In this document: one piece after another, positions 12,985 through 59,488 of the stretch
Numbering within the stretch: position 1 is the first letter of the stretch
Layout of the letters: each line of letters opens with the position of its first letter
Assembly (NCBI GenBank): GCA_963802945.1
Contig: CAWDKY010000015.1
Span: forward strand, 384,001 to 448,000
DNA: 64,000 nt
From: an uncultured delta proteobacterium
GTDB taxonomy: Bacteria > Desulfobacterota > RBG-13-43-22
Direction: 5' to 3'
Position numbers and translations under genes: made by a program
Notes under the pieces: model-generated
The model's database searches: none
What the model saw: the letters and a program-made list of their open reading frames with translations, nothing else
What the model was told of the DNA's origin: nothing

Positions 12985-13020
12985 TTCATCGCATTTGCCA
13001 CATCATCCAACGAAGGTAGC

Positions 13021-13084
13021 GGCTAAACCATCATTGCAGCGGACTCTGCGCCTACAGCCTCCGCCGCTGAACTAAAGTGTTCTC
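13021..13084 (+). other. Degenerate attC-like site
   Basis: GGCTAAAC..TTGCAGCGG...CCGCTGAA..GTGTT; arms pair with one extra base; lies just after the methyltransferase; R boxes imperfect. Confidence 0.5.
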
Positions 13085-13250
13085 ACCGCCGTTTTGCTCG
13101 ATTTCAATCAGTAATCGTCAATTTTCAGGATTCCCTCTTTAGAAGAGTTGTAGGTGTAAGCTGCAAAAAAGGGTCATCTTGGCACTTTCCGTCAACCCAA
13201 CTACTGGTCAGGACAGTTACCAGACATACCGAATGAGTTTCTTCATTATT

Positions 13251-13380
13251 GATTCCTGAGAAGTAACTCACGTTTAAGTGGATCGTCGCAATATGCTGTA
13301 TCCAATTTCCGGTAAATACTGCAAAATATTTTTATGTAAGCCGTCAGTATTTCAAAAAACCGAGTTACTTCTCACGAATC
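13251..13380. mobile_element. 130-bp MITE with 19-bp TIRs and 6-bp TSD
   Basis: GATTCCTGAGAAGTAACTC / GAGTTACTTCTCACGAATC (18/19), flanked on both sides by ATTATT. Confidence 0.75.
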
Positions 13381-13426
13381 ATTATTTACCAGCGTCCCTA
13401 TTTTCACGATAGGGTTCCAGGAGGCG

Positions 13427-14206
13427 TTATTTCCCGCTCACGGCCGGCTCGTAGAAACCTTTAATTCTTTTTCTAAGCTTGGCCCAAGAGTTAGTGATCA
13501 AGAAGCTCTCCTCCATATTATCAACCATGCCTCTGAACTTGTTCATTGGAATAGAAAAGCTAAGGATTTCTTTAGGAACATAAGGCCTGGCTGAAACGTC
13601 AAACAGGCCCAAAACAGCCCTGGGTCGGTCCAGATCTTTTTCTAAATAGGGGTACAAAACAATGGATCCGCACCCGGCCCCAAAAGGAGCGATGACACTC
13701 TCACGCCCTGTTTCTTCAAAACCGGACAAGGTAAAAAGCCCGGACAATACATCCGGGGGTGCATAAAAAATGACCACCTCGACATCGTCCTCCTGAACAA
13801 GGTTATCCCATCTTTTAAAGACAATATACTTGCCCGGGGCCTCATACCAGGGAGATTCTTCCATCAGTTGTTTTACTATTTCCGGAGATTTTTTGTACCG
13901 TTCTCCTTCCATTTTTCCTTTTATTCCGCAGGAAAGGAAATATTCGAAGCCGGGTCTCAGGTCACGAGCATATCCTAGATACCTTTTCCCACCAGCACAA
14001 CCGAACGAATCCCCTCCAAAGCATAAAGACTTCCCTTTTCTCGCTTTATTTAAGACCCCGATGAAGCACTGGTGACCTGTTGCCGGACCCTTGACCAACT
14101 CCCCCCGTCCTTCCTGATCCGTATAATAGAAGGCTATCGGGAGTTCAGCCCCATTAAAATATTTTTTCCACAAACTGAGAAACTTGTCCTTAAATTCTAA
14201 ATCCAT
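13427..14206 (-). CDS. DUF169-family protein
   Basis: CAGGKRYLG, PDVLSGLFTL, APFGAGCGSIV, GLFDVSARP. Confidence 0.8.
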   Translation of the reverse strand: MDLEFKDKFLSLWKKYFNGAELPIAFYYTDQEGRGELVKGPATGHQCFIGVLNKARKGKSLCFGGDSFGCAGGKRYLGYARDLRPGFEYFLSCGIKGKMEGERYKKSPEIVKQLMEESPWYEAPGKYIVFKRWDNLVQEDDVEVVIFYAPPDVLSGLFTLSGFEETGRESVIAPFGAGCGSIVLYPYLEKDLDRPRAVLGLFDVSARPYVPKEILSFSIPMNKFRGMVDNMEESFLITNSWAKLRKRIKGFYEPAVSGK

Positions 14207-14332
14207 GGCACCCTCCTATTGTTTTTGTCTTTTCTCATGTTTCTTGCCCCGCTCACATAACCCCTTTTTCTTCAAGAAACGATATGAATTGTAAAAATTA
14301 AAGATTTTACCCCGTACCCCCTGGTTCGATAG

Positions 14333-14662
14333 TCATTCTGTTTTTAATAATTTCTTTTCCTTCAATAGCTTTTCCACCTGGTCGGCATGCTCTACAGTAA
14401 ATCCGATATCGATCCACTGACCTTTCAGCTTGGCAAAAAAGATTCTATCTCGTTTGGGGCGTTTGAGGTCCAGGGGAAACCAAGTCTTGAAGTTCCCCGT
14501 ACCGTGGATCCTCCACTTCCCATTCCAAATGGTCGGTGTCTTTACGGTTACCCATTCAATATCGACCAGTTGCACAACCTTTTTCTTACCAGTCGGGAAA
14601 TAATAGTGATCAAAGACAATTTCATTCTCAGTCATAGAAATCAGATTGTCACGGTATATCAT
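14333..14662 (-). CDS. Hypothetical protein (cassette-like)
   Basis: GAGGAG RBS directly after the attC-like site; 109-aa ORF. Confidence 0.65.
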   Translation of the reverse strand: MIYRDNLISMTENEIVFDHYYFPTGKKKVVQLVDIEWVTVKTPTIWNGKWRIHGTGNFKTWFPLDLKRPKRDRIFFAKLKGQWIDIGFTVEHADQVEKLLKEKKLLKTE

Positions 14663-14681
14663 CTCGGGCTCTATTCTCCTC

Positions 14682-14746
14682 ATCGAATATTCGCTTAACT
14701 TGCGAACGGGCTTGGTCCCTGAGTCAAGTTGAAGCGGTTATTAGAC
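14682..14746 (-). other. attC-like site
   Basis: Minus strand GTCTAAT-AACCGCTTCAACTTG...CAAGTTAAGCGAAT-ATTCGAT; L arms pair with an extrahelical base; R boxes degenerate but complementary. Confidence 0.55.
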
Positions 14747-14778
14747 AACTGGAATATTTTTATCCTGTCGAGAATTAC

Positions 14779-14832
14779 AGGGAACGGTTCTGATTATTTA
14801 TTATTTCACCTTAAAGAAACCGTCCCATTTAT
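14779..14832 (+). repeat. Hairpin repeat copy 1
   Basis: AGGGAACGGTTC-TGATTATTTATTATTTCACCTTAAAG-AAACCGTCCCATTTAT; supplies the TAA stop of the flavin oxidoreductase. Confidence 0.9.
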
Positions 14833-16751
14833 CCTATCTTTCTTCCTGCGGCAAAGCCTTCCTCAACCGCCTCTAAAACTCTTCTGACCTGAACGGCATC
14901 GCCTATGGCCATGACTTTATAGGGCTTGCCCTCCAGTTGATGGGTCAGTTTGTTTTCCGGATTAGATCCTACGGCCAGGATAACAGTATCGGCGGGAATT
15001 ATTTCTTCTCGGCCGTCCCTGGAAACGAGGATGCTTTTATCTAATATTTCTTTAACCGTGGTATTCACATAGATCTTTACTCTCTCCTTTTCCAGCCCTT
15101 TCAGGAGCAGCTCTCTTGGAATGGCCTCCACATCCTGAGCAATCTCAGCCAGTTGTTCGACGATGGTTACGGTCCTGCCAAGGCTTGCCAAATGATAAGC
15201 CGTTTCTGCACCTACCATACCGCCGCCGATGATTACCGATGTTCGTCCGCATTCTTTTTCGCCGTTAAGTACGGCGTTCGCGAATACCACCTGGCTTTTT
15301 TCAACGCCCTTTATTTGAGGCACTATTGGCACACTTCCCGTGGAAAGGATAACTGCATCCGGCTGCTCCGCATCAATCAGTTCTGCGGTCACTTCCGCAT
15401 TCAGATGAACTTCAACACCCAGTTTATTTATCTGGTTGATCTGCCAGGTCACAAAGGAGCTGAATTCTCCCTTGGCCGGCGGTATGGCCGCCAAATAAAA
15501 TTGGCCGCCCAGTCTGCCTCCCTTTTCGAACAACTTTACCCGGTGACCTGTCTTGGCAGCAATGATCGCCGCCTCCATTCCGGCCGGTCCCCCGCCAACG
15601 ACGACCACTTTTTTCTTAACCCATTTTGGTTCAGCGGACAGCTCATATTCCCTTCCCAGTTGGGGGTTAAGAGAACATTTAATCGGCTGGTATCGGCCGA
15701 GCATGCCTATACACCCCTGCATACAGCCGATGCAGCGGACAATATCCTCAAAATCACCGGCCGCCGCCTTGATGGGCAGCTCAGGGTCGGCCAGGGAGGC
15801 CCGACCCATGGCAATAAAATCCGCTTTCCCGGAGGTCAGGATTGTTTCTGCTACCAGGGGTTCAATAATTCTTCCCACCGTCATTACCGGAATAGTAACC
15901 ACTTTTTTTACTTCCTCGGCAAAATCCACGATCCAGCCTTGGGAAGTGGCGGCACTGGGCGTAATGGCGGCACTGCTTCCATAAACGCCGGCAGATACCA
16001 GGATGACATCAATTCCCGCCTCCTGCAATAAAACAGCGATGGCTTTGGTTTCCTCAATAGTCCTGCCGCCGGGGACATATTCATCCGCGGAGATTTTGAA
16101 GCCCAGGGGGAAATCCCTGCCCACCTTTGCCCTGATATTGGAGATAACCTCTAAGGTAAAGCGTACCCGATTGGGCAGGTTACCGCCGTATTGATCGGTT
16201 CGTTTATTGGAATAGGGCGATAGAAATTGGGCGATAAGATATCCATGGGCACCGTGTATTTCTATACCGTCAAACCCGGCCTTTTGGGTCCTTAAGGCGC
16301 AATCGCCAAATTTTTCTATTGTTTCCTGGATTTCATTTATGGTCATTTCGTGGGGCATGGTTTGATTGATCGGACAGGGTATGGGAGAGGGTGCCCAGGG
16401 TTGTCCGCCGATTACCAGGGGATTGGTCTGCCGGCCGGCATGATAAATTTGGGCGAAAATTTTACTGTGGTATTGATGAACTCTCCGGGTAAGCTCGGCA
16501 TGGCTTTTGATTTGAGCGTCCGCCCATAATCCGGCCAGCCTGGGGAAGCCCCTGCCTTGCGGGTCAATGGCATAATCCTCGGTAATGATCAGCCCCCAAC
16601 CGCCTTTGGCCTTGGCCTCATGGTAGGCAATATATTTTTCAGTAGCCGTACCGTCATCATGGCAATAGAGGGTTACCATGGCCGATACAACCAGTCGGTT
16701 GGTAATTTCCAAATTTCCAATTTTCATTGGGCTAAATAAATTTTTTAACAT
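14829..16751 (-). CDS. NADH:flavin oxidoreductase (OYE family, DCR/BaiCD-like with FAD domain)
   Basis: LFSPMKIG, AGFDGIEIHGAHGYL, CIGCMQGC, VVGGGPAGMEAA, IGGGMVGAE; start reassigned to ATG 16751. Confidence 0.92.
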   Translation of the reverse strand: MLKNLFSPMKIGNLEITNRLVVSAMVTLYCHDDGTATEKYIAYHEAKAKGGWGLIITEDYAIDPQGRGFPRLAGLWADAQIKSHAELTRRVHQYHSKIFAQIYHAGRQTNPLVIGGQPWAPSPIPCPINQTMPHEMTINEIQETIEKFGDCALRTQKAGFDGIEIHGAHGYLIAQFLSPYSNKRTDQYGGNLPNRVRFTLEVISNIRAKVGRDFPLGFKISADEYVPGGRTIEETKAIAVLLQEAGIDVILVSAGVYGSSAAITPSAATSQGWIVDFAEEVKKVVTIPVMTVGRIIEPLVAETILTSGKADFIAMGRASLADPELPIKAAAGDFEDIVRCIGCMQGCIGMLGRYQPIKCSLNPQLGREYELSAEPKWVKKKVVVVGGGPAGMEAAIIAAKTGHRVKLFEKGGRLGGQFYLAAIPPAKGEFSSFVTWQINQINKLGVEVHLNAEVTAELIDAEQPDAVILSTGSVPIVPQIKGVEKSQVVFANAVLNGEKECGRTSVIIGGGMVGAETAYHLASLGRTVTIVEQLAEIAQDVEAIPRELLLKGLEKERVKIYVNTTVKEILDKSILVSRDGREEIIPADTVILAVGSNPENKLTHQLEGKPYKVMAIGDAVQVRRVLEAVEEGFAAGRKIG

Positions 16752-16802
16752 GCCTAGCCTTCCTAAATTATTTAACAGTTTTCTGAAAAACTTTTTTTTA
16801 AC

Positions 16803-16925
16803 AGGTTGCTCAAAAAGGTCCAGATGCGAGGCGCCCGAAAACCCGAGGAATGAGGCGTACATAGCAGTACGCCGCAGTGACGAGGGGTAAGGGCAACAAA
16901 GCAGATGGGCCTTTTTCAGCAACCT
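16803..16925. mobile_element. MITE-like palindromic element
   Basis: AGGTTGCTCAAAAAGGTCCA / TGGGCCTTTTTCAGCAACCT terminal inverted repeats with internal GGCGTAC..GTACGCC hairpin. Confidence 0.7.
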
Positions 16926-16959
16926 TTTAAAAGATCATGAATGATTATCTTAGCCGTTG

Positions 16960-17562
16960 TCATTTCTGAAACTTCGATGGTTTGAGCGCCTCCTGAAGTG
17001 TGGAGGCCATGTCCTGCTCCAAGGTTGCGACCCCTTTGATAACCCAAGGGCCGCCATTCTGCCAGTGAGCAGTAAAGTTGGTAATGGTTTGCCCGGTGGA
17101 AGGAGAGACGGCGAGAATCTCAAGGACCACGTCGGTTCCCCCCTCAACCAGGGCGAGGGAGGAGAAGAGCTTCACTATCGGTCCGAGTTCGCGGACAGTG
17201 ACGAAGAGAACCTGACTGAAGGTGCTCCCATAGACAGCGGCGATGGCAGGAACCTCTGTGGGCAGAAGGTCGATGGATTCTCGGTCGCCTATCTTGCGGA
17301 TGACCCTGACCTGGGCAAAGCACTCAGACGTGGAAAAGAATCGCTCAATCCCGCGCTGGGCAGCGGCCTCGCGGAAGGGAACATTCTTCTGATCGGGGCG
17401 CCACTTCGGACCCCAAAAAACAAGGGCCGAAGCCTGTTGGTTGGGCCCTTGACACAGGGGCTGCTGGGGAGCTTGCCCCGTGATTTGAAAATGCGTGCTG
17501 GCGCAGCCGGACAGCACAAGACCTAAGAGTAAAATCAATTTAACGGAACAGACGATGCGCAT
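16960..17562 (-). CDS. Hypothetical lipoprotein
   Basis: Lipobox LSGC after hydrophobic signal. Confidence 0.7.
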   Translation of the reverse strand: MRIVCSVKLILLLGLVLSGCASTHFQITGQAPQQPLCQGPNQQASALVFWGPKWRPDQKNVPFREAAAQRGIERFFSTSECFAQVRVIRKIGDRESIDLLPTEVPAIAAVYGSTFSQVLFVTVRELGPIVKLFSSLALVEGGTDVVLEILAVSPSTGQTITNFTAHWQNGGPWVIKGVATLEQDMASTLQEALKPSKFQK

Positions 17563-17603
17563 GGAGAGAACCTCAATAACGCACTGGTAAAATTTAAAAA
17601 GAA

Positions 17604-17625
17604 TTAAAGGGGACCTCCCCTTTAT
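17604..17625. repeat. Collapsed hairpin-repeat copy (outer arms only)
   Basis: TTAAAGGGGAC-C-TCCCCTTTAT matches the two outer arms of copy 5 with the core missing. Confidence 0.55.
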
Positions 17626-17635
17626 GCTACACGTT

Positions 17636-18094
17636 TTAAAAAAATATCATGGCCAGCGCCTGGGCAACACAAGCTGGTTTTTCCTGTCCCTCAATTTCGA
17701 TGGTGTGGGTCTGTATCATGAGAAGCCGGTTGCCGGGCTTTTCTTCCAGCCCTGTAAGCACAATCCGGTCACGTATTTTTGCACCGGAAACCACAGGGTT
17801 GAGAAATCGCACCCTGTCCAGGCCATAGTTGATACTCATCACGACGCCTTCCATTTTCAACGGCACCTGATAGCTGAAAAACGGTAAATGGGAGAGGGTT
17901 AGATACCCGTGGGCGATGGTTTGACCGAACGGTCCTTTGGCGGCTTTTTCCAAATCCACATGAATCCATTGATGATCTTTCGTGCTGTCGGCGAATTGAT
18001 TGATCTGTTCCTGTGTCACCTGTGTCCAATCGGATAGGAAAATTTCTTTCCCGATGGACTTCTCCAGACTTTTTAATACCGATGCTAGTGACAT
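17636..18094 (-). CDS. MaoC-family dehydratase (NodN-like)
   Basis: FADSTKDHQWIHVD, GPFGQTIAHGYLTLS, NYGLDRVRFLNPV. Confidence 0.92.
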   Translation of the reverse strand: MSLASVLKSLEKSIGKEIFLSDWTQVTQEQINQFADSTKDHQWIHVDLEKAAKGPFGQTIAHGYLTLSHLPFFSYQVPLKMEGVVMSINYGLDRVRFLNPVVSGAKIRDRIVLTGLEEKPGNRLLMIQTHTIEIEGQEKPACVAQALAMIFF

Positions 18095-18367
18095 GATTCA
18101 TTTCCCCTTTCAGTCTTTAACCTAAAGTCATCATAGCTGATTTAAGACATTTGCACAATACCGTATAATTCGAAAGCGGCATTCATTTTGGACTGTGCCA
18201 CCTGCGCTTATTCACGATTCGATCAAAAAGTTCAGCGATGGTCGAACAGGTCAAAACTCCATTGACACACCATATTGATCTTCATATACTCTCATCATGA
18301 AAAAGTAATGCCTTACCAATATATTCTCAGCGCTTTTTAAGAAAACAATTACACCAGGAGGGTTATC

Positions 18368-18751
18368 ATGTCCGCAATCGAAGAGGCCAAAAAGACTATG
18401 GAAGATTACTTTGCCGCTTTTAACTCAAGGGATGTGGAGGCTATCCGCAGACACCTGCATTTCCCGTTTAGCTGGATTATTAACACGCGTGTGCGGCCTG
18501 TCGCCAAGGCGTCTGAATTCGAATCTCCCACCCAAACACTTATCGAGACCGAGGGTTGGCATCACAGCGCCTTTGATTATATCGAGCCGGTGCAGGTGTG
18601 GGAAAATAAGGTTCACTTCAAGCTGGCTTACAGCCGTTTCAAGGCCGACGGCACCAGATACATGACCCATGAAGCACTCTGGATCGTGACCAAAGTTGAC
18701 GGTCGGTGGGGGATCTGTCTGATGTCCTTGAATATTCCCAAAACCGTCTAA
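18368..18751 (+). CDS. NTF2/SnoaL-like protein
   Basis: GGAGG RBS; YFAAFNSRD start and WIVTKVDGRWGI end typical of the fold. Confidence 0.7.
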   Translation: MSAIEEAKKTMEDYFAAFNSRDVEAIRRHLHFPFSWIINTRVRPVAKASEFESPTQTLIETEGWHHSAFDYIEPVQVWENKVHFKLAYSRFKADGTRYMTHEALWIVTKVDGRWGICLMSLNIPKTV

Positions 18752-18760
18752 TAAATAATT

Positions 18761-18818
18761 AATTGGGCCGGTTCTGATTACTTAATTATTTCGCCTTAAA
18801 GAGAACCGTCCCTTTTAT
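18761..18818 (+). repeat. Hairpin repeat copy 2
   Basis: GGGCCGGTTC-TGATTACTTAATTATTTCGCCTTAAAGA-GAACCGTCCCTTTTAT. Confidence 0.9.
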
Positions 18819-18833
18819 TCTCACAGTTAGGAA

Positions 18834-19355
18834 TCACCTATTCTTTAAAAACTGCTCGATCTCCTGCTTGTGTTGGGCTACGTAACTACAGCTTGGCTCT
18901 TGGCCGCACTTTCGACATTTCAGGTCGTAGGTGGAATTGATGGTCTGGCACCGTGGACAGGTATAGTCTTTCCTAATTTCCTTGAGCCATTGTTTGTAAC
19001 CCTTAGACTTGATTCGCTCAAGATTTTCCCAAAGGTCGATCCGATGAGGCATGGCAGATTGAAACTGCTTCAGTTCATCGCAGGGATACTCTTCACATTG
19101 GCTGCAAAAGGCGATGCCTCGTTCCGCTGCGCAAGCAAACATCTTGCATTTCTCGCAATAGGGCAACCTCTTGTCCGACCGGCATCCATAGCACTTGCTC
19201 TCTTCCGCTGATAAATGCAATTGTACCGCAAGCTTTTTGAGCCTTTCCTGATCTTCCGTGGTGGCGATAAACCATGAGCAGGCTTCACAGTAAAGGCCGC
19301 ATACAGCGGCTAATTTTTTGTCCAATTCTTCAAATTGCTTTTCTTCATTTTGCAT
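18834..19355 (-). CDS. DUF3795 Cys-rich protein
   Basis: AVCGLYCEAC, CYGCRS, CSQCEEYPC, CPRC...CRKC. Confidence 0.85.
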   Translation of the reverse strand: MQNEEKQFEELDKKLAAVCGLYCEACSWFIATTEDQERLKKLAVQLHLSAEESKCYGCRSDKRLPYCEKCKMFACAAERGIAFCSQCEEYPCDELKQFQSAMPHRIDLWENLERIKSKGYKQWLKEIRKDYTCPRCQTINSTYDLKCRKCGQEPSCSYVAQHKQEIEQFLKNR

Positions 19356-19395
19356 GACGACCTCCATCCTCATTTTCAAATACCTGCGGAATAAA

Positions 19396-19454
19396 ATAAA
19401 GGAGCCGGTCCTGATTATTTATTGTTTCGCCTTAAAGAGAACCTTCCCATCTAT
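19396..19454 (+). repeat. Hairpin repeat copy 3
   Basis: ATAAAGGAGCCGGTCC-TGATTATTTATTGTTTCGCCTTAAAGA-GAACCTTCCCATCTAT. Confidence 0.88.
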
Positions 19455-19529
19455 CATGCTTCTCCCTATTGCCTTGAATTAAGTAACCTGTCCTCGGGAT
19501 AGCACGGCACTTTGTTTATTTCTATAAGG

Positions 19530-21032
19530 TCATCCGTTCGGTCCCTTGGTCACCGGTTTGCCTATGTCCCTGACAATGGCCTTCAATAAGGCCAGGTAAA
19601 GCAAACGGTGAAAAGGATACAGGACATACCAATAGAGGATCCCACCCAACCCTCGGGGTAAAAAGCGGGAGATCTGCTCAAGCTCGGTATTGCCATCCGG
19701 AAGAGGCCGGATTTTGAATTCCAGGAGGGCTTCGCCGGGCAGCTTCATTTCAGAGACTAATATTAAATGAACCAAAGGTGTTATTTCCAATACTCGCCAA
19801 AAATCCAGGGCTTCGCCGGGCAGTAAATCAGTCGGATGGCGTCTTCCTCTCCTGAAACCGACACCCCCGACCAGGCGGTCAACCCAACCCCTGATTTTCC
19901 AGAGAATGTTTTCAGAATACCAGGCTTTCCCGCCCCTGCCTTGAATTACAGATTTCCAGACCTCTTCCGGATGGGCTTTAAAGCGAACACGAAAGCTCAT
20001 TTCCAGAATAGTCCCACCGGCATACTGAGTATCCCCGCAATAGTACCATTCCTGGGGAACAATAGCGCCGGCATCCATCCAGCAGGTATCAATTCGTTGC
20101 TGATCAATGCGGTCCAAGGCCAAGCGAATGGTTTGTCGGCAGTCCAGTAATTCTTGGGGGATGATGTCCCGGATCCGCTGGTCCTGGCAAGTAACTGGAT
20201 TACGCAATCCTTCAGTCAGAGGTCTGGCGATGGAAGAAGGGATCGGGGTGAGGAGATGGATCCAATAAGAACTAAACCTTGGGGAAAGGATTGGGATCGG
20301 AATAATCCACCGCTTGTGAAGATGGGCCTCTTGGGCATAGAGCTGAAAAAGTTTCCGATAGGTTACCACATCAGGCCCGCAAATATCAAAGTTCTCACCT
20401 AAAACCTCATCATGCTCCAGACACCCCTGCAGATAATTCAAGACGTTTCGGATGGCGATGGGTTGAACCGGAGTATTCACCCAGCGGGGGGCGAGCATAA
20501 TGGGTAACCGATCCCCAAGATAACGGACCAACTCAAAAGAAGCACTCCCGGATCCCAAAATCATGGCGGCCCGCAGGAAGGTAGCCGGCACCTGGCCGGA
20601 CTGTAAAATCCGGGCCACCTCCTGCCGGGAGCGCAGGTGTTCACTGAGCCGGCGATCATCGCGACCGCCCAATCCCCCCAGATAGATGATCCGATTTAAA
20701 CCGGCCTTGGCAGCCGCTTCAACCATATTTTGGGCTGCCCGCCGGTCGGTCTTGGTATACCCTTTAGGGTCGGCATTCATGGAGTGGACCAGATAGAAGG
20801 CAGCCCAGCATCCAGCCACAGCCTGATTTAAGGATTCTTGGTTCAAGACATCCCCGGTTGCCAACTCGACTAAGGGATGATTCCCCCAGGGACGCCCTTT
20901 TAATTTAGCCGCCGATCGCCCTAGAGCACGAACCTTATAACCGGCTCTTAAAAGTTGGGGAACCAGCCTTCCCCCCACATATCCTGTCGCTCCGGTAACT
21001 AATACAGGTTGGGTGTGCACGAAGATCTCCAA
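19530..21032 (-). CDS. Atypical SDR with DUF2867 domain (YbjT-like)
   Basis: VTGATGYVGGRLV, YLVHSM, GSGSASFE, LDFWRV, EMKLPGEALLEF. Confidence 0.9.
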   Translation of the reverse strand: MEIFVHTQPVLVTGATGYVGGRLVPQLLRAGYKVRALGRSAAKLKGRPWGNHPLVELATGDVLNQESLNQAVAGCWAAFYLVHSMNADPKGYTKTDRRAAQNMVEAAAKAGLNRIIYLGGLGGRDDRRLSEHLRSRQEVARILQSGQVPATFLRAAMILGSGSASFELVRYLGDRLPIMLAPRWVNTPVQPIAIRNVLNYLQGCLEHDEVLGENFDICGPDVVTYRKLFQLYAQEAHLHKRWIIPIPILSPRFSSYWIHLLTPIPSSIARPLTEGLRNPVTCQDQRIRDIIPQELLDCRQTIRLALDRIDQQRIDTCWMDAGAIVPQEWYYCGDTQYAGGTILEMSFRVRFKAHPEEVWKSVIQGRGGKAWYSENILWKIRGWVDRLVGGVGFRRGRRHPTDLLPGEALDFWRVLEITPLVHLILVSEMKLPGEALLEFKIRPLPDGNTELEQISRFLPRGLGGILYWYVLYPFHRLLYLALLKAIVRDIGKPVTKGPNG

Positions 21033-21053
21033 TAATTTTTGTGGAACATGGGG

Positions 21054-21790
21054 TCAAGTTTGGTACAGACCGCCATTGACCTGGATGGTTTGTCCGGTCA
21101 TATATCCATTGCCAACCAGCATAAGGGCCACATCGGCCACCTCTTCCACGGTCCCGAAACGACCGACCGGAATCCGGTCCGGTCTGGCCTTGATGCCATC
21201 ACTCATCATATCGGTGATGATCAGGGCCGGGCATATGGCATTGACCGTGATCCCCTCCTTGAATAACCGGGAAGCGTAGGAATGGGTGAGGCCCAGGATA
21301 CCGGCCTTGGAGGCCGCATAATGAGGGCCCACAACCCCGCCGACCTGGGCGGCGGTCGAGGACAGGTTGATGATCCTTCCCCATCGCTGGGACCGAAGGC
21401 CCGGCAAAACCGCTTGGGTCACCAGGTAACAGGATTTCAGATTGATCCTGAGCGTTTCGTCCCAGACTTCTTCGGTCATTTCCTCAAGGCCCCGGGGTTT
21501 GGCAATCCCGGCATTGTTTATAAGGATGGATATGGGTCCCAGTTCCATCTCGATGGTTTCTGACCAATCGGCTCACCTCTTCCGCCTGGCTGACATCGGC
21601 CTGTACGGCCAGACTGCGACGGCCAAGACTTTTGATCTCCGAACTCACCTCCTGGGCCTCGTTTTCATGGGTTTTAAAATTGACCGCCACATCAGCACCG
21701 GCTTTGGCCAAGGACACCGCAATGGCCCGGCCGATTCCCCGACTGGCCCCGGTCACTAAAGCGATCCGGCCGCTTATTTCCGAATGTCAT
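21054..21790 (-). pseudogene. FabG-like SDR split by frameshifts
   Basis: ALVTGASRGIG in one frame; NNAG, YAASK, PVGRFG in another; a further frame break near the start. Confidence 0.8.
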
Positions 21791-21813
21791 CTTTTCATCC
21801 CTTCTTTATTGAA

Positions 21814-22203
21814 TTAGGCTTTCGTGAACAGCTCGGGGTTGGCGTATTTGGTAATGTCAATAGCGAAATGGACAAACAAATCCTTTTGGCCCCCGATGGG
21901 GAGCCAATAGGAATCCACGAACCGTTTACTGGGGGCATAATAGCCGACGGATCTTTTGCCCACCCCTTCTTCCAAAGCCGAATTTCCCAGACACTGTTTA
22001 TGAATACAATCATCTCCGGATAATTGATAGCATTTCATTCCCAAGCGAACCCCTCTGTCTCTGGCTGTTTGGTTGAAATCTACAATAGTCCGATCTTTTC
22101 TTAAGAGGAAAACAGGAGTAGGAAACATATCCCACATCAAATGAAAGGCTTTTAAAATCTCCGGATTGACCTCAATATTGTCAGGCTCTTGACTCTTTTC
22201 CAT
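21814..22203 (-). CDS. Small PAS-like protein, copy 1
   Basis: FHLMWDMFP, LLRKDRTIVDFN, GMKCY...C...C; near-identical to 24846-25235. Confidence 0.75.
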   Translation of the reverse strand: MEKSQEPDNIEVNPEILKAFHLMWDMFPTPVFLLRKDRTIVDFNQTARDRGVRLGMKCYQLSGDDCIHKQCLGNSALEEGVGKRSVGYYAPSKRFVDSYWLPIGGQKDLFVHFAIDITKYANPELFTKA

Positions 22204-22239
22204 TTTTGTTCCTTCCAATGCTTACCGACCATATAAAAA

Positions 22240-22298
22240 TTAAAGGGGATGGTTCTGATTATTTATTATTTCGCCTTAAAGAGAACCGTCCCATTTAT
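22240..22298 (+). repeat. Hairpin repeat copy 4
   Basis: TTAAAGGGGATGGTTC-TGATTATTTATTATTTCGCCTTAAAGA-GAACCGTCCCATTTAT. Confidence 0.92.
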
Positions 22299-22436
22299 CC
22301 ACAAGATCTCAAATAAAAAAATGATAACACTCCAATTTGTTGAAGTCAAATTACCTTGACAGGCCATATTTTCTCCCTCTATACTTCACTCACCCAAAAG
22401 AAAATCCAAATCAAAGATAAAGAAAGAGAAAATAAC

Positions 22437-23522
22437 GTGAACCAGATTGATCCAATTTACCAGGAATTAGCGGAAAAAATGGGGAGTCCCGATTCAAAAA
22501 TATTACCCAGAGTACTCCAGAGGCTGGCTACTCTGGAACAGGCCCAAATCCTGCGCGAAATGCCGGCTTCCTTTGAGGAAATCGCCAAAAAGTTAGGCTT
22601 GAGCTTGGAAACAGTGGAAAAGCTAATGCAAGGGCCGTTTGAAAATGGGGTTATTTTCCATGGCAAGCATGGTTGGCGTATGCCGGCAAACTGGTTTTTC
22701 TTACACGACATGGCTGGGTCATCCGAGTCCAAGTATGACGATGACGTATTTTTTGATTTGATGATGGATGTGCATAATGAGAACATAGAACGGCTGGTAA
22801 AACGATTAAAAGAAGCCAAGGAACCGACTCTGAAGCAAGTGCAGAGAGTAGTTCCCGACTGGAAAGCCATCCAGGGTATACCCGGCGTTCTACCACATGA
22901 AAACACATTCGTAGGCTTTAAAGATGTATCACCGGTCGTTTCGATTAATTGCGCCTGCAAGAGGCTCTACCGTGACAGGAAGTGCAAAGATGATATCCCT
23001 CTCCGAGTATGCTTTACTGCCGGCAGATCCGGAAAGGTGGCTCTCGAACGCGGACTCGGGAGGGAGATCAACCACGATGAATATTTGGAGATTCAGGAGC
23101 GAGCTACCGAATATGGACTCGTTCATCTTTATCCGAATAATTCCAAAATACCCGACGGGATATGTAACTGCCATCATTGCTGTTGCGGTCAATTCTTGAT
23201 CAGTGCCCATACGAAGCCGAATTTTAATCTGCTCTCGATTGCCAAGAGTCGTTTCATTGCGGAAGTGGACCAGGAGAAGTGCAGGGGTTGCAGGAAGTGC
23301 GTGGATAAGAGATGCCCGGTCGGTGCGGCTCAGATGAAATTTTCCCCTGAATATGGTGAGGACCGTGCCTTTATTGATACGGAAGAATGCATTGGCTGCG
23401 GACTCTGTGTGCTGACCTGCCCAACTGGGGCCCGTAGGATGGAGTTAGTCAGACCGCCGGACCATATTCCGGAACCCCGTAACTTTTCTTTATCTGAAAT
23501 AGTTGCTGATTTAGTGTCCTAA
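22437..23522 (+). CDS. 4Fe-4S protein with N-terminal HTH-like region
   Basis: CACKR, ICNCHHCCC, CRGCRKCVDKRCP, CIGCGLCVLTCP; GTG start. Confidence 0.85.
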   Translation: MNQIDPIYQELAEKMGSPDSKILPRVLQRLATLEQAQILREMPASFEEIAKKLGLSLETVEKLMQGPFENGVIFHGKHGWRMPANWFFLHDMAGSSESKYDDDVFFDLMMDVHNENIERLVKRLKEAKEPTLKQVQRVVPDWKAIQGIPGVLPHENTFVGFKDVSPVVSINCACKRLYRDRKCKDDIPLRVCFTAGRSGKVALERGLGREINHDEYLEIQERATEYGLVHLYPNNSKIPDGICNCHHCCCGQFLISAHTKPNFNLLSIAKSRFIAEVDQEKCRGCRKCVDKRCPVGAAQMKFSPEYGEDRAFIDTEECIGCGLCVLTCPTGARRMELVRPPDHIPEPRNFSLSEIVADLVS

Positions 23523-23630
23523 ATTTGGTGCGAACACGACTTATTTCTTCAAAAATTCGAGGGACCATATTTATTTCCAATTTAAAAATTAAATTAGTAT
23601 GGATGTCCCCCGATTTAGTCCCGCTTTAAA

Positions 23631-23689
23631 TTAAAGGGGACGGTTCTGATTATTTATTCTTTCGCCTTAAAGACAACCGTCCCCTTTAT
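23631..23689 (+). repeat. Hairpin repeat copy 5
   Basis: TTAAAGGGGACGGTTC-TGATTATTTATTCTTTCGCCTTAAAGA-CAACCGTCCCCTTTAT. Confidence 0.92.
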
Positions 23690-23718
23690 CTTTTTCCCGA
23701 TGTCGTGGAATTCAACAA

Positions 23719-24468
23719 TCAATCTTTAAATCCGAATATTGCACTTTGAATGATTCTGGTTGCCATGATCATTTGTTCTGCCTTCATATAGGCACCACTC
23801 ATTCTATGTGTCTCTTTTCTATATTCTCTTGCATGTTCTTCTGACCAGAAGAAAACACACTCAGTTCAGAATGAATCGATAATACTATCGTCTTTGAGTT
23901 TGAATAAATCTATATCCGGTACAAAGATTACCGGTTCGCATCCTCCGTCCTTGACCTTATAGCGAAGATCACTGTCAATCTCGATTTCCATCGGACAAGA
24001 GCAGTGGGCACATTCGGTTTCAATTTGTACCATCAGGTGTTCGTTTCGTAATTTCCCTTGCACGAAGGGCGTTGCAAATGCATCTGCCGCTCAGGCGGCA
24101 TACAATTTTTCACCTGTGCTAAAAGAAATTTTGTGTGGGGTTTTATCAACCGTGACCGGATAGGCCCACACCACATCTCCCTTTCTGTTTCTATAGAGGA
24201 AGGTCATGCGCTTTTCCAGATAATCCAATGCGGTTTTAACACCATCAACCGAAAAACCAATCTCGTTCGATATGAATTCCGGGGATAAAGGCTTACTTTG
24301 ACGCGGGAGTTCTCTTACCACGAAATGATGAATCAGACGATATTCCTCGGATAGAGCGCCTTGTTCTTTTTCAAATTTTCTTCTTCCTTTAGCTATTTGT
24401 TTCTGCCATAAAAATGGCGGGACTTTAATTATATACCGCCACATTCCAAGCATGAGTTTATTACTCAC
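23719..24468 (-). CDS. merB: MerB-like organometallic lyase, predicted selenoprotein with two Sec (U126, U201), 249 aa
   Basis: ORFs 24091-24468 and 23866-24063 and a further 48 codons are one frame interrupted only by TGA at 24091-93 (LYAA-U-AAD) and 23866-68 (IDSF-U-TECVFFWSEEHA); also AYPVT...TPH and N-terminal wHTH. Confidence 0.82.
23828..23868 (-). promoter_or_regulatory. Bacterial SECIS-like hairpin after second UGA
   Basis: UGA-ACUGAGUGUGUU-UUCUUCU-GGUC-AGAAGAA-CAUGC: 7-bp upper stem, GGUC loop 19 nt after UGA. Confidence 0.75.
24055..24093 (-). promoter_or_regulatory. Possible SECIS hairpin after first UGA
   Basis: UGA-N21-CCCUU-CGUGC-AAGGG; G at second loop position; an alternative fold is possible. 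Confidence 0.5.
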
Positions 24469-24616
24469 AGAAATTTTCCTTTCAATCTATTTGAGGTTTC
24501 AAATGTTTAGTCGCATAAAATTTCAGCTAACCTGCCGCGCCAATGACCCACCCTTGGCCCTTTTCCAATTTTAAATGATATCGGAACCTAAAGTAGAACA
24601 ACGGTCTTGTTTAATT

Positions 24617-24673
24617 AATTGGGAGGATTCTGATTATTTATTATTTCGCCTTAAAGAGAACCACCCCATTTAT
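24617..24673 (+). repeat. Hairpin repeat copy 6
   Basis: GGGAGGATTC-TGATTATTTATTATTTCGCCTTAAAGA-GAACCACCCCATTTAT. Confidence 0.88.
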
Positions 24674-24845
24674 TCTATGCCAAATATAATTGGGAATAAA
24701 ATATCGATTAGCTCCTGGCATCGCTGTTCTGCTTAAACCGTCATACCCTGAATGGAATTTCAATCTGTTGTCCCGGTCCGACCCTTATTTGATTATTGAA
24801 ATCTCAGTTATGTCAACAGAATTTTCAAGGTAACCTTAAATTGGA

Positions 24846-25235
24846 TTAGGCCTTCGTGAACAGCTCGGGGTTGGCGTATTTGGTAATGTCAATAGCGAAA
24901 TGGACAAACAAATCCTTTTGGCCCCCGATGGGGAGCCAATAGGAATCCACGAACCGTTTACTGGGGGCATAATAGCCGACGGATCTTTTGCCCACCCCTT
25001 CTTCCAAAGCCGAATTTCCCAGACACTGCTTATGAATACAATCATCCCCGGATAATTGATAGCATTTCGTACCCAAACGAACCCCTCTGTCTTTGGCTGT
25101 TTGGTTGAAATCTACAATAGTCCGATCTTTTCTTAAGAGGAAAACAGAAGTGGGAAACATATCCCACATCAAATGAAAGGCTTTTAAAATCTCCGGACTG
25201 ACCTCAATATTGTCCGGCTCTTGACTCTTTTCCAT
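24846..25235 (-). CDS. Small PAS-like protein, copy 2
   Basis: 4 amino-acid differences from 21814-22203. Confidence 0.75.
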   Translation of the reverse strand: MEKSQEPDNIEVSPEILKAFHLMWDMFPTSVFLLRKDRTIVDFNQTAKDRGVRLGTKCYQLSGDDCIHKQCLGNSALEEGVGKRSVGYYAPSKRFVDSYWLPIGGQKDLFVHFAIDITKYANPELFTKA

Positions 25236-25350
25236 TTTTTTCCTCCCGATGCTACCATATAAGATTTACTATATATGCCGAATGAGTTTCATACTTATTC
25301 ACCAGCATCCCAAGTTTTCTTAAATTAAGGAAACTGTCCCCCGGATTACA

Positions 25351-25390
25351 GATTATTTATTTTTTCACCTTAAAGAGAACACCACTTTAT
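25351..25390 (+). repeat. Hairpin repeat copy 7 (left arm lost)
   Basis: GATTATTTATTTTTTCACCTTAAAGAGAACACCACTTTAT, flanked by two AATTAAG.AAACTGTCCCCC motifs. Confidence 0.75.
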
Positions 25391-25468
25391 TCTTGAATTA
25401 AGTAAACTGTCCCCCGAATAGTCTGGCCTGGTACCTCTGCTTATTGGAAGGAGGAGAGAAAGAAAAAA

Positions 25469-26503
25469 TTATTGCTTTGTTCTAAATTCCTTTAACATCG
25501 TACACTCAACGAGCTTATCCAGATTCTGTAGTGTAAACACCTTCCCCCGTGTTGCCAAGATTATCCTTTTCATATCTTCCCGCCGGACCCCGAAACCGCG
25601 GCCTGCGATGCATGCGATGACTTCGTACTTCGGCTTTCCCTCTGACTGTCCTTCCATACTCAGCGTACCCAGGCGTTGAATGCGGGCGACTTTGTCACGC
25701 GCCGTACCATCGTCCTCGGTTATTTTCGCTTCAATGATCGCCTGTGGATTGAATTCACTGGGAATAATGAAATCAGGTGTCTGATCAAAACCTTGAATTT
25801 TCTGTGCCCTTTTTGTTTTCCGGTAGGTGATACCTGCCTTGCTTAACACATCCTCAATTGCCGATTCCAGACTGTCTCCGATAAGATCGCTCACGGAGTC
25901 CCGGTGACCCGCGAAGGGTCTGCCAAGGAACCGCTCATAGAGCAGCATGGCATAAGGAACCCCGATATCTGCAAGTGATCTTATACCATCCAGACCTGTT
26001 CTCGTATCGGCCTTGTCAAGCCGATGTATTTTGTTCCGTGCCACATTCGGTACGTTCTTTTTAAGAAACTCACACGCGGTTACGATCAAGGCATTCAGCC
26101 GTTCCGCGCTCAGGCTGCTGATCTTAAGAGGTGTTATCGGTGCCAGCCGGATATCCCGATCAAGCGTACGAACGAAACCTTGGGTGACCACGATTTTTGT
26201 ATGCTGAGTGGCGATATAAGCCCACTCCGGCGGTGTGAAACCCAAAATGGTACGAATAACAATGACCGATACAGGCACGGCCTTAACGCAATCCATGACC
26301 ACCTCGGGTGTCAGGGTACGAAAACCGCCTGTTGCCTGTTTCAACGCTTCGTATCCTTTTTCAAACACTGGATATTCGACGAATCCATCACCTTTTGGCA
26401 TGATAAGAAATTCTGACTCAAGACAAGAAAATATCGCTGTCACATACTGATCAGGATCAGCCTGCACGTCCTCAAAAGGAACTTCAAAAGAAAATTTCAT
26501 CAT
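25469..26503 (-). CDS. Putative restriction endonuclease, PD-(D/E)xK
   Basis: TPDFIIP...IIEAKITEDDGTARDK; overlaps the stop of the methyltransferase. Confidence 0.75.
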   Translation of the reverse strand: MMKFSFEVPFEDVQADPDQYVTAIFSCLESEFLIMPKGDGFVEYPVFEKGYEALKQATGGFRTLTPEVVMDCVKAVPVSVIVIRTILGFTPPEWAYIATQHTKIVVTQGFVRTLDRDIRLAPITPLKISSLSAERLNALIVTACEFLKKNVPNVARNKIHRLDKADTRTGLDGIRSLADIGVPYAMLLYERFLGRPFAGHRDSVSDLIGDSLESAIEDVLSKAGITYRKTKRAQKIQGFDQTPDFIIPSEFNPQAIIEAKITEDDGTARDKVARIQRLGTLSMEGQSEGKPKYEVIACIAGRGFGVRREDMKRIILATRGKVFTLQNLDKLVECTMLKEFRTKQ

Positions 26504-28694
26504 CATCCGCTCCATATCGTTTTGACTTTTCCCGTACAACGGAGATCTTGACCTGCTCAAGGTGTTCCGTCTCTTCGCTAACATGCCGTCCGACAGCCTC
26601 TAGTCCACCGAATTCCTCGATCTTCGAAACAAGTGCTGCTGTTTTTTCTTGAACCGGTCTTGTATTGTCCCAAGTATGGCGAAGGTGCCACACCGCGAGC
26701 CGTGTAAAATGACCATAGATAATGCAGCGAACATCACCGCGTGTTTCCTTTACGCCCGCCTGGCGAAGGTTTCCCACATCATCCCTCACCAGGTCAGCAA
26801 AAGCCATGGGAGTATTAGCTAACCATCGGGCCGGTACGGAGCCGGTGCTTCGACAAACGAAGACCGTATCGACAATAGATGAACCAGTGCCGCTGATATG
26901 GATCGAAGCCCCCATCTCGGCAGGGCAAGGTAACGATGCGGAACAGACCAAGCTGGAATCGAGCATTGCAATAGCGATCGGATAATAGGCTTCGAGACTA
27001 TTGTGATGATAGGTAAACACCATCGGATGGCCGGGCTTTAAGGCTTGCGCCATTTTGCGGAACACGACCGAAAGTCCTTCCGTAAAATAATCGAGCCCCC
27101 GCTTCATATTAACGTTGCCGGTCAATTCCTGTTTGTCGCGCGTCGTACCTCGCGCAAATGCGGGATCGCCCGTACCCACGAGCTTGCGCAGCCATACATA
27201 GCAGAAATCCATCAACTCGGCATACTGCACATTGCTGTAATATGGCGGGTCAGTGAATACCGCATCCACTGACCTAGGTTGAAGGTCCGCTTCCATGGAG
27301 CTTTGGCTAAGAAGCCGCACCTGGCGTCTGATAGGTGGGGAGGTTCCGTTTTTCTGGTCCCCGATCCATTCACCACGAACAGGGACCTGAATCTTGCGGC
27401 CATGTTCGTGCCGTATCTCAAAAGGCGCATCGCAATAAGCTTTGGCTTTATAATATTTTTCGATAATATTGGCCCAGCCGCCGCTCCCCACGTTCATACC
27501 CCCGCCATTTATGATGCCGAGAAAGTTCGACTCGCACTGTACGAGCCCTATAGGGAAACCATGGACTGAAAAGATGTCAAGAGACTTTAGCGCCATTGAA
27601 TCATACCTGCAGAGCATATTCTGATAACGGAGCAGGTCCGAAAGGTTGGTTGCAAGTGCGTTCCGCACACGCTCATCAGAGACATCCGCGATGGCCCGGC
27701 AGCTCAATTCCAGCCCGAGGAGCTGGCGCAAATTGAACATCTCACGATACTTCTGGTACCCCCATCTATGGAGCCGTGCAGTCTCATCGCCACCCAATAT
27801 AATATCATCCGGCACAAACAAGGTCTTCATGCTATTCAACCTGTTTGTGGCCTCCGTATATTTGGCCAGATCGGTTCGCGAGGGCTTCTTAAAGAACCTG
27901 CCCTCGTGCTGTGGTTTGCATTTTTTACAGTGATACTCCATGGCGTACATCCGATGAGTTGGTGGATGCTCGGGCTTGAAGGAGTAAAAGTTTGGCTTGC
28001 CGCAGTGTTTGCACTCGTATTTGCTCCTCTTTGCTGGACCATCAACTAGAATTCGTTCGCCGCATGACTTGCACTTGCCCGGTCGATGTCGATCTTTTAC
28101 TCCGTTCAATTCCCCGCAGGACGCGCACACATATATGTTCTCAGGATGTCGTTTGTCCTCCGCAAGCAGGTACCCAGGAAAAAGATCATTCGCCTTGCCG
28201 CAGTTGGCGCAGGTATGCTGTTTTACCCAGAGGAAATATTTTACATGTGCCTTTCTTGATCCGCACTCAAGACAGGTTGTATGATATAAGCTCCCGATAT
28301 TTTGTTCCAACCCGCTGACAAGCTCATCCGCTGCTTTACGATAGGCCTTTAAGTCCAGGTGTTCAATCTCTTGCCGCACGATCCAGTAGGCCATTGGGTT
28401 GATGTCATAGCCGATCACATCGCATCCAATGCGGTTTGCTTCAACGATAGGGGTACCTCCGCCCATGAAGGGATCGACCACGACAAGGCCGGAGAGGTTA
28501 TTGGAAGAGTAGAAAGTGTCCTGCAGCGGTTTGTTTACAAACTCCGAGAGAAGAAGCCCACGGAAAAGCGTACCCGGTCGCCGCGCAAACCACTTATGCA
28601 CAGCGATAATAGGCCGGTAATTCTGCTGAATTTGCTTTTCATGCAAAGCCAGGGAAGAGATAAATGGTATGTCGAATTTTTTTTCAATGGACAT
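26484..28694 (-). CDS. Amino-DNA methyltransferase with Zn-ribbon insertions (DUF1156-like)
   Basis: HKWFARRPG, DPFMGGGT, TDPPYY, many CxxC pairs. Confidence 0.88.
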   Translation of the reverse strand: MSIEKKFDIPFISSLALHEKQIQQNYRPIIAVHKWFARRPGTLFRGLLLSEFVNKPLQDTFYSSNNLSGLVVVDPFMGGGTPIVEANRIGCDVIGYDINPMAYWIVRQEIEHLDLKAYRKAADELVSGLEQNIGSLYHTTCLECGSRKAHVKYFLWVKQHTCANCGKANDLFPGYLLAEDKRHPENIYVCASCGELNGVKDRHRPGKCKSCGERILVDGPAKRSKYECKHCGKPNFYSFKPEHPPTHRMYAMEYHCKKCKPQHEGRFFKKPSRTDLAKYTEATNRLNSMKTLFVPDDIILGGDETARLHRWGYQKYREMFNLRQLLGLELSCRAIADVSDERVRNALATNLSDLLRYQNMLCRYDSMALKSLDIFSVHGFPIGLVQCESNFLGIINGGGMNVGSGGWANIIEKYYKAKAYCDAPFEIRHEHGRKIQVPVRGEWIGDQKNGTSPPIRRQVRLLSQSSMEADLQPRSVDAVFTDPPYYSNVQYAELMDFCYVWLRKLVGTGDPAFARGTTRDKQELTGNVNMKRGLDYFTEGLSVVFRKMAQALKPGHPMVFTYHHNSLEAYYPIAIAMLDSSLVCSASLPCPAEMGASIHISGTGSSIVDTVFVCRSTGSVPARWLANTPMAFADLVRDDVGNLRQAGVKETRGDVRCIIYGHFTRLAVWHLRHTWDNTRPVQEKTAALVSKIEEFGGLEAVGRHVSEETEHLEQVKISVVREKSKRYGADDDEIFF

Positions 28695-30390: not shown

Positions 30391-30394
30391 AATA

Positions 30395-34687: not shown

Positions 34688-34703
34688 AAACCAGTCCCAT
34701 TTA

Positions 34704-59411: not shown

Positions 59412-59488
59412 GGGCGATTAGCTCAGGTGGATAGAGCGTTGGTCTCCGGAACCAAAGGCCGTGGGTTCAAGTCCCGCATCGCCCGCCA
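59412..59488 (+). tRNA. tRNA-Arg(CCG)
   Basis: GGGCGAT/ATCGCCC acceptor stem, anticodon arm TTGGT-CTCCGGA-ACCAA, TTCAAGT loop, encoded CCA. Confidence 0.96.

Follow-up and report, generated by a model that had tools for sequence, protein, structure and literature searches.

Doublets of repetitive extragenic palindromic (REP) sequences, known as REPINs, are inverted, hairpin-forming and non-autonomous, lie outside genes and consist of units that elsewhere flank a Y1-HUH gene encoding a REP-associated tyrosine transposase (RAYT), as described in the available part of Bertels and Rainey (2011, PMC3116915). RAYT-like genes are also found enclosed by terminal inverted repeats (TIRs), some of which share the sequence GGGGWSAS, in TIRtrons with TIRYT genes, and the repeat families concerned comprise single units, dimers and clusters (Di Nocera et al. 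2013, PMC3733652, available in part). Here we analyse a hairpin repeat of about 63 nt in a 64,000-nucleotide stretch (the window) of the genome of an uncultured delta proteobacterium, in which seven co-oriented copies lie between accessory genes at 14774-25393, all on the + strand. We show that these repeats are doublets of a unit that flanks Y1-HUH genes in other genomes and that they are few, orphan and decaying here. A first-pass annotation had proposed a working gene-capture system; we consider it probable that the repeats are REPIN-like hairpins without a cognate enzyme that serve as breakpoints where accessory-gene content is hypervariable.

The repeats share with REPINs the inverted doublet hairpin, the location outside genes, the non-autonomous character and the presence of the unit beside Y1 genes elsewhere. 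They differ from the REPINs of that account (PMC3116915, in its available part) in having the core GGGGACGGTTC in place of a GTAG-tagged REP, and in numbering nine copies, seven of which form a 10.6-kb co-oriented cluster, with no cognate flanked gene found in the genome or the genus. TIRtrons are similar in that RAYT-like genes stand within inverted repeats and the repeats occur singly, as dimers and in clusters. A right-arm-like half site from the window, which on the other strand reads GGGGACAG, fits GGGGWSAS, and the main core, GGGGACGG, fits seven of its eight positions. The available part of the TIRYT account (PMC3733652) mentions neither an 11-mer that is constant across phyla nor inverted flanks that are specific to each copy.

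Hairpin doublets in the window and the genome

The arms of the repeat, GGGGACGGTTC and GAACCGTCCCC, are inverted copies of one unit with a 27-nt spacer between them; the 11-nt arm core is GGGGACGGTTC, and the outer stem, read from alignments, is TAAAGGGG/CCCCTTTA. In shape the repeat goes from an A-rich run through a stem rich in G+C to a T-rich run, with a tail limited to TTTAT. Extrahelical bases are absent from the consensus stem, which carries GTT in its 5′ arm and AAC in its 3′ arm, at the loop end. The doublets therefore have the hairpin built from inverted copies of one short unit, outside genes, that characterizes REPINs. The flanks are inverted complements (…ATAAA / TTTAT…) that lengthen the palindrome, and direct repeats were not seen; a miniature inverted-repeat element of a DDE transposon does not fit, since the flanks are inverted and show no direct target-site duplication.

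A covariance model was built from seven copies. Six copies in the window scored 77-91 bits: copy 1 (14774-14835, 77.5 bits); copy 2 (18758-18821, 83.3 bits), between convergent genes for a 127-aa protein (18368-18751, + strand) and a DUF3795 protein (18834-19379, − strand); copy 3 (19395-19457, 77.3 bits), which is kept with its flanks in the sister species (genome G005; contig L022, 6691-6762); copy 4 (22239-22301, 91 bits); copy 5 (23630-23692, 89.2 bits), with the best-preserved arms and an exact GGGGACGGTTC core; and copy 6 (24614-24676, 83.7 bits). Copy 7 (25345-25393, 36 bits) is degenerate and comprises the loop and a poor right arm. Copy 4 separates divergent gene starts, with a gap of 20 nt to a 134-aa gene on its left (21814-22218, − strand) and of 54 nt to a 4Fe-4S gene on its right (22356-23522, + strand). 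Spacing between copies is gene-sized, at 636-3985 bp. A direct-repeat search of 13000-27000 returned a family with six 63-nt copies and a 30-nt sub-family that adds the seventh at 25351, and the 27-nt loop TGATTATTTATTATTTCGCCTTAAAGA has 6 matches at up to 3 mismatches, versus 0 expected from shuffles.

Partial copies accompany the full ones. An arms-only hairpin (17603-17628, + strand, 21 bits) is read as a deletion derivative of the doublet. Right-arm-like half sites, GAATTAAGTAAACTGTCCCC, are co-oriented with the array: one singlet (direct-repeat family D4) lies at 19476-19495, and two others, at 25322-25341 and 25395-25414, stand on either side of copy 7, all on the + strand. A right-arm remnant (34689-34705, + strand) abuts an SPFH/Band_7 gene (34704-36599, − strand) and supplies its stop codon. 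The half sites and the remnant are additions to the first-pass annotation, which had listed seven copies facing the same way, an arms-only copy at 17604 and no copy elsewhere in the 64 kb. The covariance-model scan recovered all seven within a few bases of the positions given and placed them on one strand, and it found no further full copy in the window beyond these and the arms-only hairpin.

Stem statistics were taken from 19 copies from genomes of the genus and from metagenome contigs. Pairing was present in 83.7% of stem cells versus 82.7% in shuffles (70 of 500 shuffles reached the observed value), and only 3 of the 15 stem pairs showed double changes; arm changes thus break pairs without compensation, and the stems are decaying in this genus. 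The inverted arms of about 15 bp that had been described are present, but in most copies they are imperfect and do not form a clean stem throughout.

The assembly that contains the window (G000; 4.37 Mb, 72 contigs) holds nine strong copies. The two beyond the window, C16:210368 and C20:5138, stand between a PIN-domain gene and a BrnT-like gene; a homology break between them was considered and rejected, as there is only a short divergent patch within homologous DNA. No genome-wide hairpin family with arms of this type was found in G000, and the core is not enriched there (exact matches, 6 versus 5 for the reversed control; one mismatch, 67 versus 70). With nine strong copies and an unenriched core, G000 lacks the dispersed, many-copy population of REPINs.

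Among 60 relatives searched, the same loop was found in only five other genomes, all of the genus (G004, G005, G008, G010 and G011). Clustering and co-orientation recur there: a single 14-kb contig of G005 carries five copies, and G004 has three in a span of 18 kb. One specific 27-nt spacer is common to all genus copies, and the highest repeat-model count in any genus genome is 11 matches. Weaker matches in other families of the phylum keep the arms and have quite different loops. The exact pattern GGGGACGGTTC-N(5-90)-GAACCGTCCCC was present in 7 of 201 phylum genomes (reversed control, 0), and one of the phylum's genomes (G093) carries doublets in either orientation.

The repeat core and Y1-HUH genes of other phyla

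We searched a species collection for the two-arm pattern with a gap of 25-55 nt and obtained at least 120 stretches, of which 80 listed ones were examined. The matches listed come from Bacillota, Actinomycetota, Bacteroidota, Cyanobacteria, Omnitrophota, Elusimicrobiota, Atribacterota and other phyla. The 80 stretches follow a common plan, a - core - a′ - loop - a - core′ - a′, in which the flank a, of 6-10 nt, varies by copy and pairs with a segment just inside the core; tandem multimers of a plus core also occur. Counts of the 11-mer in five genomes were 420, 297, 85, 35 and 17, versus 0-1 for the reversed word. Scatter through a whole genome, which the first-pass annotation had named as a mark of an ordinary REP or similar element, is thus found in other genomes (up to 420 cores, and either orientation in G093) but not in G000. 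No fixed neighbouring gene was apparent among 402 open reading frames (ORFs) near the hairpins, the largest family being present at 7 of the 80 loci. Rfam gave no family at gathering score on the window, and on 8 related loci only generic hairpin models of microRNA type below gathering. A full-text literature search, whose reach excludes figures and supplements, returned no relevant paper for GGGGACGGTTC or its complement.

Two genomes show the core in arrays. In a Micropruina genome (G217; loci L190 and L191), four to five core units are arranged head to tail with a period of 46-57 nt, and the arrays may finish in one inverted unit. In a Rossellomorea genome (G215), most of the 35 cores fall in two stretches of about 10 kb (L110 and L194), where small accessory genes alternate with core doublets or singlets at almost every gap; the genes include YCII, DinB, GNAT, MerR, nucleotidyltransferase, glyoxalase and DUF4181 families.

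The core is associated with Y1 genes in these other genomes. In the Micropruina genome, three tandem cores precede the sole Y1 gene at a distance of 85-200 nt, and a degraded Y1 gene in a Blautia metagenome-assembled genome has core hairpins on both sides. An alignment of six Y1 proteins from core-rich genomes (A4) was used to fetch 80 loci from the species collection, and the core, with at most 1 mismatch, was present in 34 of them, versus 2 of 80 for the reversed control. The best of these loci have a core immediately before the gene on one strand and another immediately after it on the opposite strand, which amounts to inverted flanking. We scored the flanks of 114 Y1 loci, including 30 from the genus: the core was two-sided in 20, one-sided in 12 and on neither side in 82. 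A single clade of 52 rows, with a support of 93 in the Shimodaira–Hasegawa-like approximate likelihood ratio test (SH-aLRT), holds all 20 two-sided loci and 10 of the 11 one-sided loci from outside the genus, and all 28 genus rows fall outside this clade in the quick tree. Cores placed in inverted orientation around Y1 genes constitute the arrangement that defines the REP–RAYT and TIR–TIRYT systems. The repeats of the window are therefore REPIN-like doublets of the GGGGWSAS-type TIR/REP kind, as that kind is described in the available part of Di Nocera et al. (PMC3733652). The first-pass annotation had linked GGGGAC-type inverted repeats with Y1-HUH genes, and this link agrees with what we see in many other genomes.

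The A4 proteins carry NHVH and a C-terminal helix-turn-helix, which are features of Y1 subclass 2.1, and by these motifs they would belong to that subclass, for which the available part of Quentin et al. (2018, PMC6006769) reports no REP-like sequences. These findings connect an unusual local array with the REP/TIR units of Y1-HUH transposases, a class of repeats already known. Less familiar is the sharing of one 11-nt core by the repeats of many phyla, always between inverted flanks specific to each copy.

The window's own genome and genus were searched for such an enzyme. G000 has 13 PF01797 matches, several of which are RAYT-like frames of 240-340 aa. We scanned 11 Y1 sites in G000 (ten PF01797 matches and one found through A4) and observed no core-like word flanking them within 1.8 kb. 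A local RAYT was rejected as the source, as neither the core nor a similar hairpin is near the 11 sites. The Y1-HUH gene flanked by the repeat that the first-pass annotation had proposed to look for was therefore not found at these sites of the genome or at the 30 best Y1 loci of 14 genus genomes, and inverted flanking of a Y1-HUH gene by the unit was seen in other genomes only. IS200/IS605 elements and their miniatures belong to the same enzyme superfamily, Y1-HUH, which acts on hairpins in single-stranded DNA. The IS200-type genes of G000 (133-146 aa), however, end in other hairpins, and the doublet ends here are one unit inverted rather than distinct left and right ends.

Breakpoints at repeat edges and competing explanations

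Contig L022 of the sister species is collinear with the window from 13.1 to 25.7 kb at about 93% identity, with interruptions. Where the window has 14314-14834 (a 116-aa gene, 14333-14683, and copy 1), G005 has 45 nt, and homology resumes at the base after the repeat. At the arms-only hairpin, G005 has 2.5 kb that comprises three repeats, one of them split by a small element, and two gene modules. A 598-bp segment with the 127-aa gene (18159-18756) is absent from G005, and the gap touches the left edge of copy 2. Rightward of copy 4 the genes differ: the window has the 4Fe-4S and MerB genes, and G005 has a phosphatidylserine-decarboxylase-like gene, a TfoX_N gene and an M90 peptidase before the two sequences rejoin at the half sites near 25.3 kb. 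The eight window-side breakpoints are 14313, 14835, 17593, 17604, 18158, 18757, 22245 and 25349, and six lie no more than 10 nt from the edge of a repeat or half site. The binomial probability of six in eight is estimated at 2e-8 when 3% of positions are taken as edge, and still only at 3.5e-4 when the share of intergenic DNA so classed is raised to 16%. Indel breakpoints cluster at repeat edges.

Repeats of the copy-4 type share their left neighbour but not their right one, which is different in each of four sequences, the window, G005 and the metagenome contigs L047 and L050, with homology stopping right after ...TTTATC. On a further metagenome contig, L049, a full doublet separates a PIN toxin–antitoxin pair from a Band_7 gene; at this site the window has 2.6 kb of other genes and keeps the right arm alone (34689-34705). 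A MerB homologue located elsewhere in the G008 genome is homologous from the base after copy 5 to the start codon, not to copy 6, and module edges do not run regularly from repeat to repeat. The copy-4 homologue of G005 has lost its left arm and loop between two TTAAAG microhomologies, which points to slippage. The comparison of gene order across relatives suggested in the first-pass annotation therefore reveals differing content with breakpoints at repeat edges, so that even a few orphan copies coincide with accessory-gene breakpoints between close relatives. Contigs of relatives from four metagenome runs had the G005-like layout with no circle or empty-site junction, and are uninformative on activity; each of the 24 sequencing runs listed covers a small share (at most 0.14), and no RNA run was among those with the region.

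On our reading each repeat is a REPIN-like doublet in which a 27-nt spacer separates two inverted REP/TIR-type units with the core GGGGACGGTTC. Elsewhere this unit is a dispersed, often high-copy, non-autonomous element that also forms the inverted flanks of one RAYT/TIRYT-like Y1-HUH clade, and in the genus it persists as a low-copy local subfamily with its own spacer and decaying stems. The copies occupy intergenic gaps of a hypervariable stretch, where insertions, deletions and replacements that distinguish relatives start or stop at their edges, and we infer that DNA is broken and rejoined more readily at the feet of the palindromes. This might come about when replication stalls or slips at the hairpins, through recombination between copies of about 60 nt, or by nicking by a non-cognate Y1 enzyme. 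The repeats would then act as passive breakpoints and portable homology, not as sites of a dedicated capture enzyme. Their co-orientation may stem from descent, local duplication or strand-specific insertion; insertion of the IS200/IS605 type is strand specific and could explain it. If the repeats do cause the turnover, they would offer a cheap, enzyme-poor route to modular gene exchange.

Several observations weigh against reading the repeats as orphan REPIN-like breakpoints. Seven of the nine copies lie within 10.6 kb in one direction, unlike the usual dispersed pattern of REPINs. The arms diverge about twice as much between copies as the spacer does (pairwise difference, 0.209 versus 0.116), the reverse of what simple recognition of the arms would predict; shared sub-family variants account for part of the arm difference. 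The enzyme link comes from other phyla, with no cognate flanked gene among the 30 best Y1 loci of 14 genus genomes or in G000. The Y1 tree is the product of a quick maximum-likelihood search, and A4 was drawn from core-rich genomes, which could bias the locus count; only one of its six genes has cores nearby. The manner in which the breaks at repeat edges arose is likewise inferred.

An integron was considered and rejected. The array resembles attC arrays and clusters of attC sites lacking integron integrases (CALINs) in its co-oriented hairpins, gene-sized spacing, mostly single-gene accessory modules, variable cargo and lack of an adjacent integrase. In attC sites, the foot of the hairpin carries the inverted outer core sites RYYYAAC (R″) and GTTRRRY (R′). 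The repeats, in contrast, have no outer RYYYAAC...GTTRRRY and no extrahelical bases, and their sole pair, GTT...AAC, lies at the loop end on both strands. IntI is absent from G000, where the top TIGR02249 match reaches 79.6 bits and the cut-off is 265. Scores above the cut-off were obtained in 6 of 14 genus genomes (G001, G002, G004, G007, G009 and G010), which have true integron integrases (296-387 bits), mostly at contig ends; cassette arrays were not recovered with them. The repeat model found no copy in 72,382 bases around nine genus intI loci, arm-like words were likewise missing next to three intI genes from other families in the phylum, and a search for inverted repeats beside three intI genes gave no array. 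Integrase and repeat do not go together: G000 and G005 have repeats without IntI, and G001, G002, G007 and G009 have IntI without repeats. Site anatomy, the missing IntI and the lack of association with relatives' intI genes all uphold the first-pass statement that these are not attC sites. No recombinase lies near the array in the window, in which only two candidates occur: an IS30-like rve gene (30377-31225) and, at about 59.4-59.9 kb, a truncated fragment of an integrase.

Three further identities were considered for the hairpins. A link to IS91 was suggested by a broken IS91 transposase and a tyrosine recombinase in the G004 array, and was rejected, since neither G005 nor G011, both of which bear the repeat, has PF04986. 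A presumed likeness to Tn3-type inverted repeats (GGGG...TAAG layout, about 38 nt) was dropped once the Y1 association appeared. An intrinsic terminator was set aside in view of the 27-nt loop, the tail of only TTTAT and the position of copy 4 between divergent starts.

We regard it as unlikely that the hairpins are sites of a dedicated enzyme, encoded elsewhere or lost from the assembly, in an integron-like cassette system. Such a system would account for the co-oriented array with its spacing of 636-3985 bp and four single-gene intervals, for cargo that varies among relatives with breakpoints at repeat edges, for a module duplicated within the array at 97% identity, and for the toxin–antitoxin and restriction-modification genes that adjoin related hairpins in other families of the phylum. 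It sits poorly with the absence of IntI (79.6 bits versus 265), the uncoupling of IntI and repeat in the genus, the lack of copies beside relatives' intI, the decay of stems without compensation and the action of the identical core as a dispersed REP-like repeat elsewhere; in addition, only one side of the insertion with the 127-aa gene has a repeat, and the edge of the MerB module is a start codon and not copy 6. The claim of a working capture system is not supported on similar grounds: no cognate enzyme was found in the genome or genus, stems decay uncompensated and module edges are irregular. It is equally doubtful that pairs of hairpins, or a hairpin and a half site, let a Y1-HUH enzyme peel out and paste in neighbouring genes as single-stranded DNA. 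The Rossellomorea arrays, with single small accessory genes between core doublets, keep a cassette reading alive at low odds. Were it true, the GGGGACGGTTC arrays here, in the sister species and in Rossellomorea would form an HUH-based counterpart of integron cassettes that spans phyla, with the enzyme acting in trans, and would represent a second, HUH-based kind of cassette platform if an enzyme drives the turnover.

We give still less credence to two other explanations. Accessory genes, or the whole block, might have been imported as passengers with their own 3′ hairpins from repeat-rich donors, which we think improbable. Repeats do adjoin gene 3′ ends (copy 1 and the 34689 remnant provide stop codons), the linkage of repeat to gene end is retained in G004, L049 and G008, the array is a GC mosaic (0.43-0.54 versus 0.474), and copies are few and sporadic in the phylum, with the exact pattern in 7 of 201 genomes. 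A single 27-nt spacer in all genus copies, however, indicates multiplication within one lineage and not varied donors, no copy-rich genus genome was found (maximum, 11 matches), and copy 4 lies between two gene starts and not at a 3′ end. Least probable, in our judgement, is that the hairpins are cis-acting RNA or DNA signals (bidirectional terminators, mRNA stabilizers or operators) under selection beside accessory genes. The succession of A-rich run, G+C-rich stem and T-rich run, mostly just past stop codons, and the better conservation of the spacer than of the arms would suit a signal, as would the description of REPs as often transcribed and situated downstream of genes (PMC3733652, in its available part), but no Rfam family reached gathering, related loci matching only generic hairpin models below it, and copy 4 again lies between divergent starts, with no compensatory change in the stems. 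Intrinsic terminators also have loops far shorter than 27 nt.

Genes between and beside the repeats

All seven copies are intergenic or touch only a gene end or stop codon, as the first-pass annotation had it, and the 3′ tail of copy 1 indeed provides the TAA stop of an Oxidored_FMN/Pyr_redox gene (14829-16922, − strand). The gene modules between repeats extend over 14333-25235 and, from ORFs and Pfam, encode in order a 116-aa protein, the Oxidored_FMN/Pyr_redox protein, a 200-aa lipoprotein-like protein, MaoC, the 127-aa protein, DUF3795, an NAD-binding/DUF2867 protein, a broken short-chain dehydrogenase, two copies of a 129-134-aa protein, the 4Fe-4S protein and MerB with an in-frame TGA. 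Four intervals had been described as holding one gene each; Pfam supports DUF3795, 4Fe-4S and MerB, and the protein called PAS-like has no Pfam match. The remaining intervals contain two to three unrelated genes, as had been said. GC content across the array is a mosaic, at 0.43-0.54 versus a genome mean of 0.474.

The MerB-family gene (23701-24468, − strand) forms an open frame only when a single in-frame TGA immediately before 24091 is translated, and the Pfam MerB match (residues 107-235) covers the TGA position, as expected of a selenocysteine form. A 300-nt duplication with 97% identity (21808-22107 and 24840-25139) spans the 129-134-aa gene, the one called PAS-like, which lacks a Pfam match; upstream of each duplicate stands a common element, about 75 nt long, whose end is a half site, and G005 has one and a half copies. 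The short-chain dehydrogenase gene (21054-21756, − strand) is split here into frames of 164 aa and 90 aa and is a whole 244-aa frame in G005. Relatives' contigs are one base shorter at 21561, which indicates either a frameshift or an error of assembly.

A separate small multi-copy element is present as a 156-nt insertion at 16773-16930, upstream of the flavin oxidoreductase gene, and relatives lack this insertion. Its metagenome contig depth is 42-92 versus about 5 nearby, and a second site is found at L022 7957-8266. In G005 a copy of this element splits one hairpin repeat at a duplicated TTAA. An apparent right-half-only site in G005 (L022 7939-7956) had been considered as a recombination product, and is in fact the end of the doublet split by the element at TTAA.

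To the right of the array lies a defence and mobile patch (25469-31225) with a restriction-like gene (371 aa), a DNA methylase of 736 aa and a fragmented GmrSD-like gene (29255-30426), the end of which is overlapped by the IS30-like rve transposase gene. Toxin–antitoxin pairs follow beyond this patch at 31.4-32.9 kb and 38.1-38.7 kb. Within 59412-59927, a tRNA gene (59412-59485) adjoins a truncated tyrosine-recombinase fragment (PF00589, 37.5 bits), and the two may mark the edge of an old integrated element.

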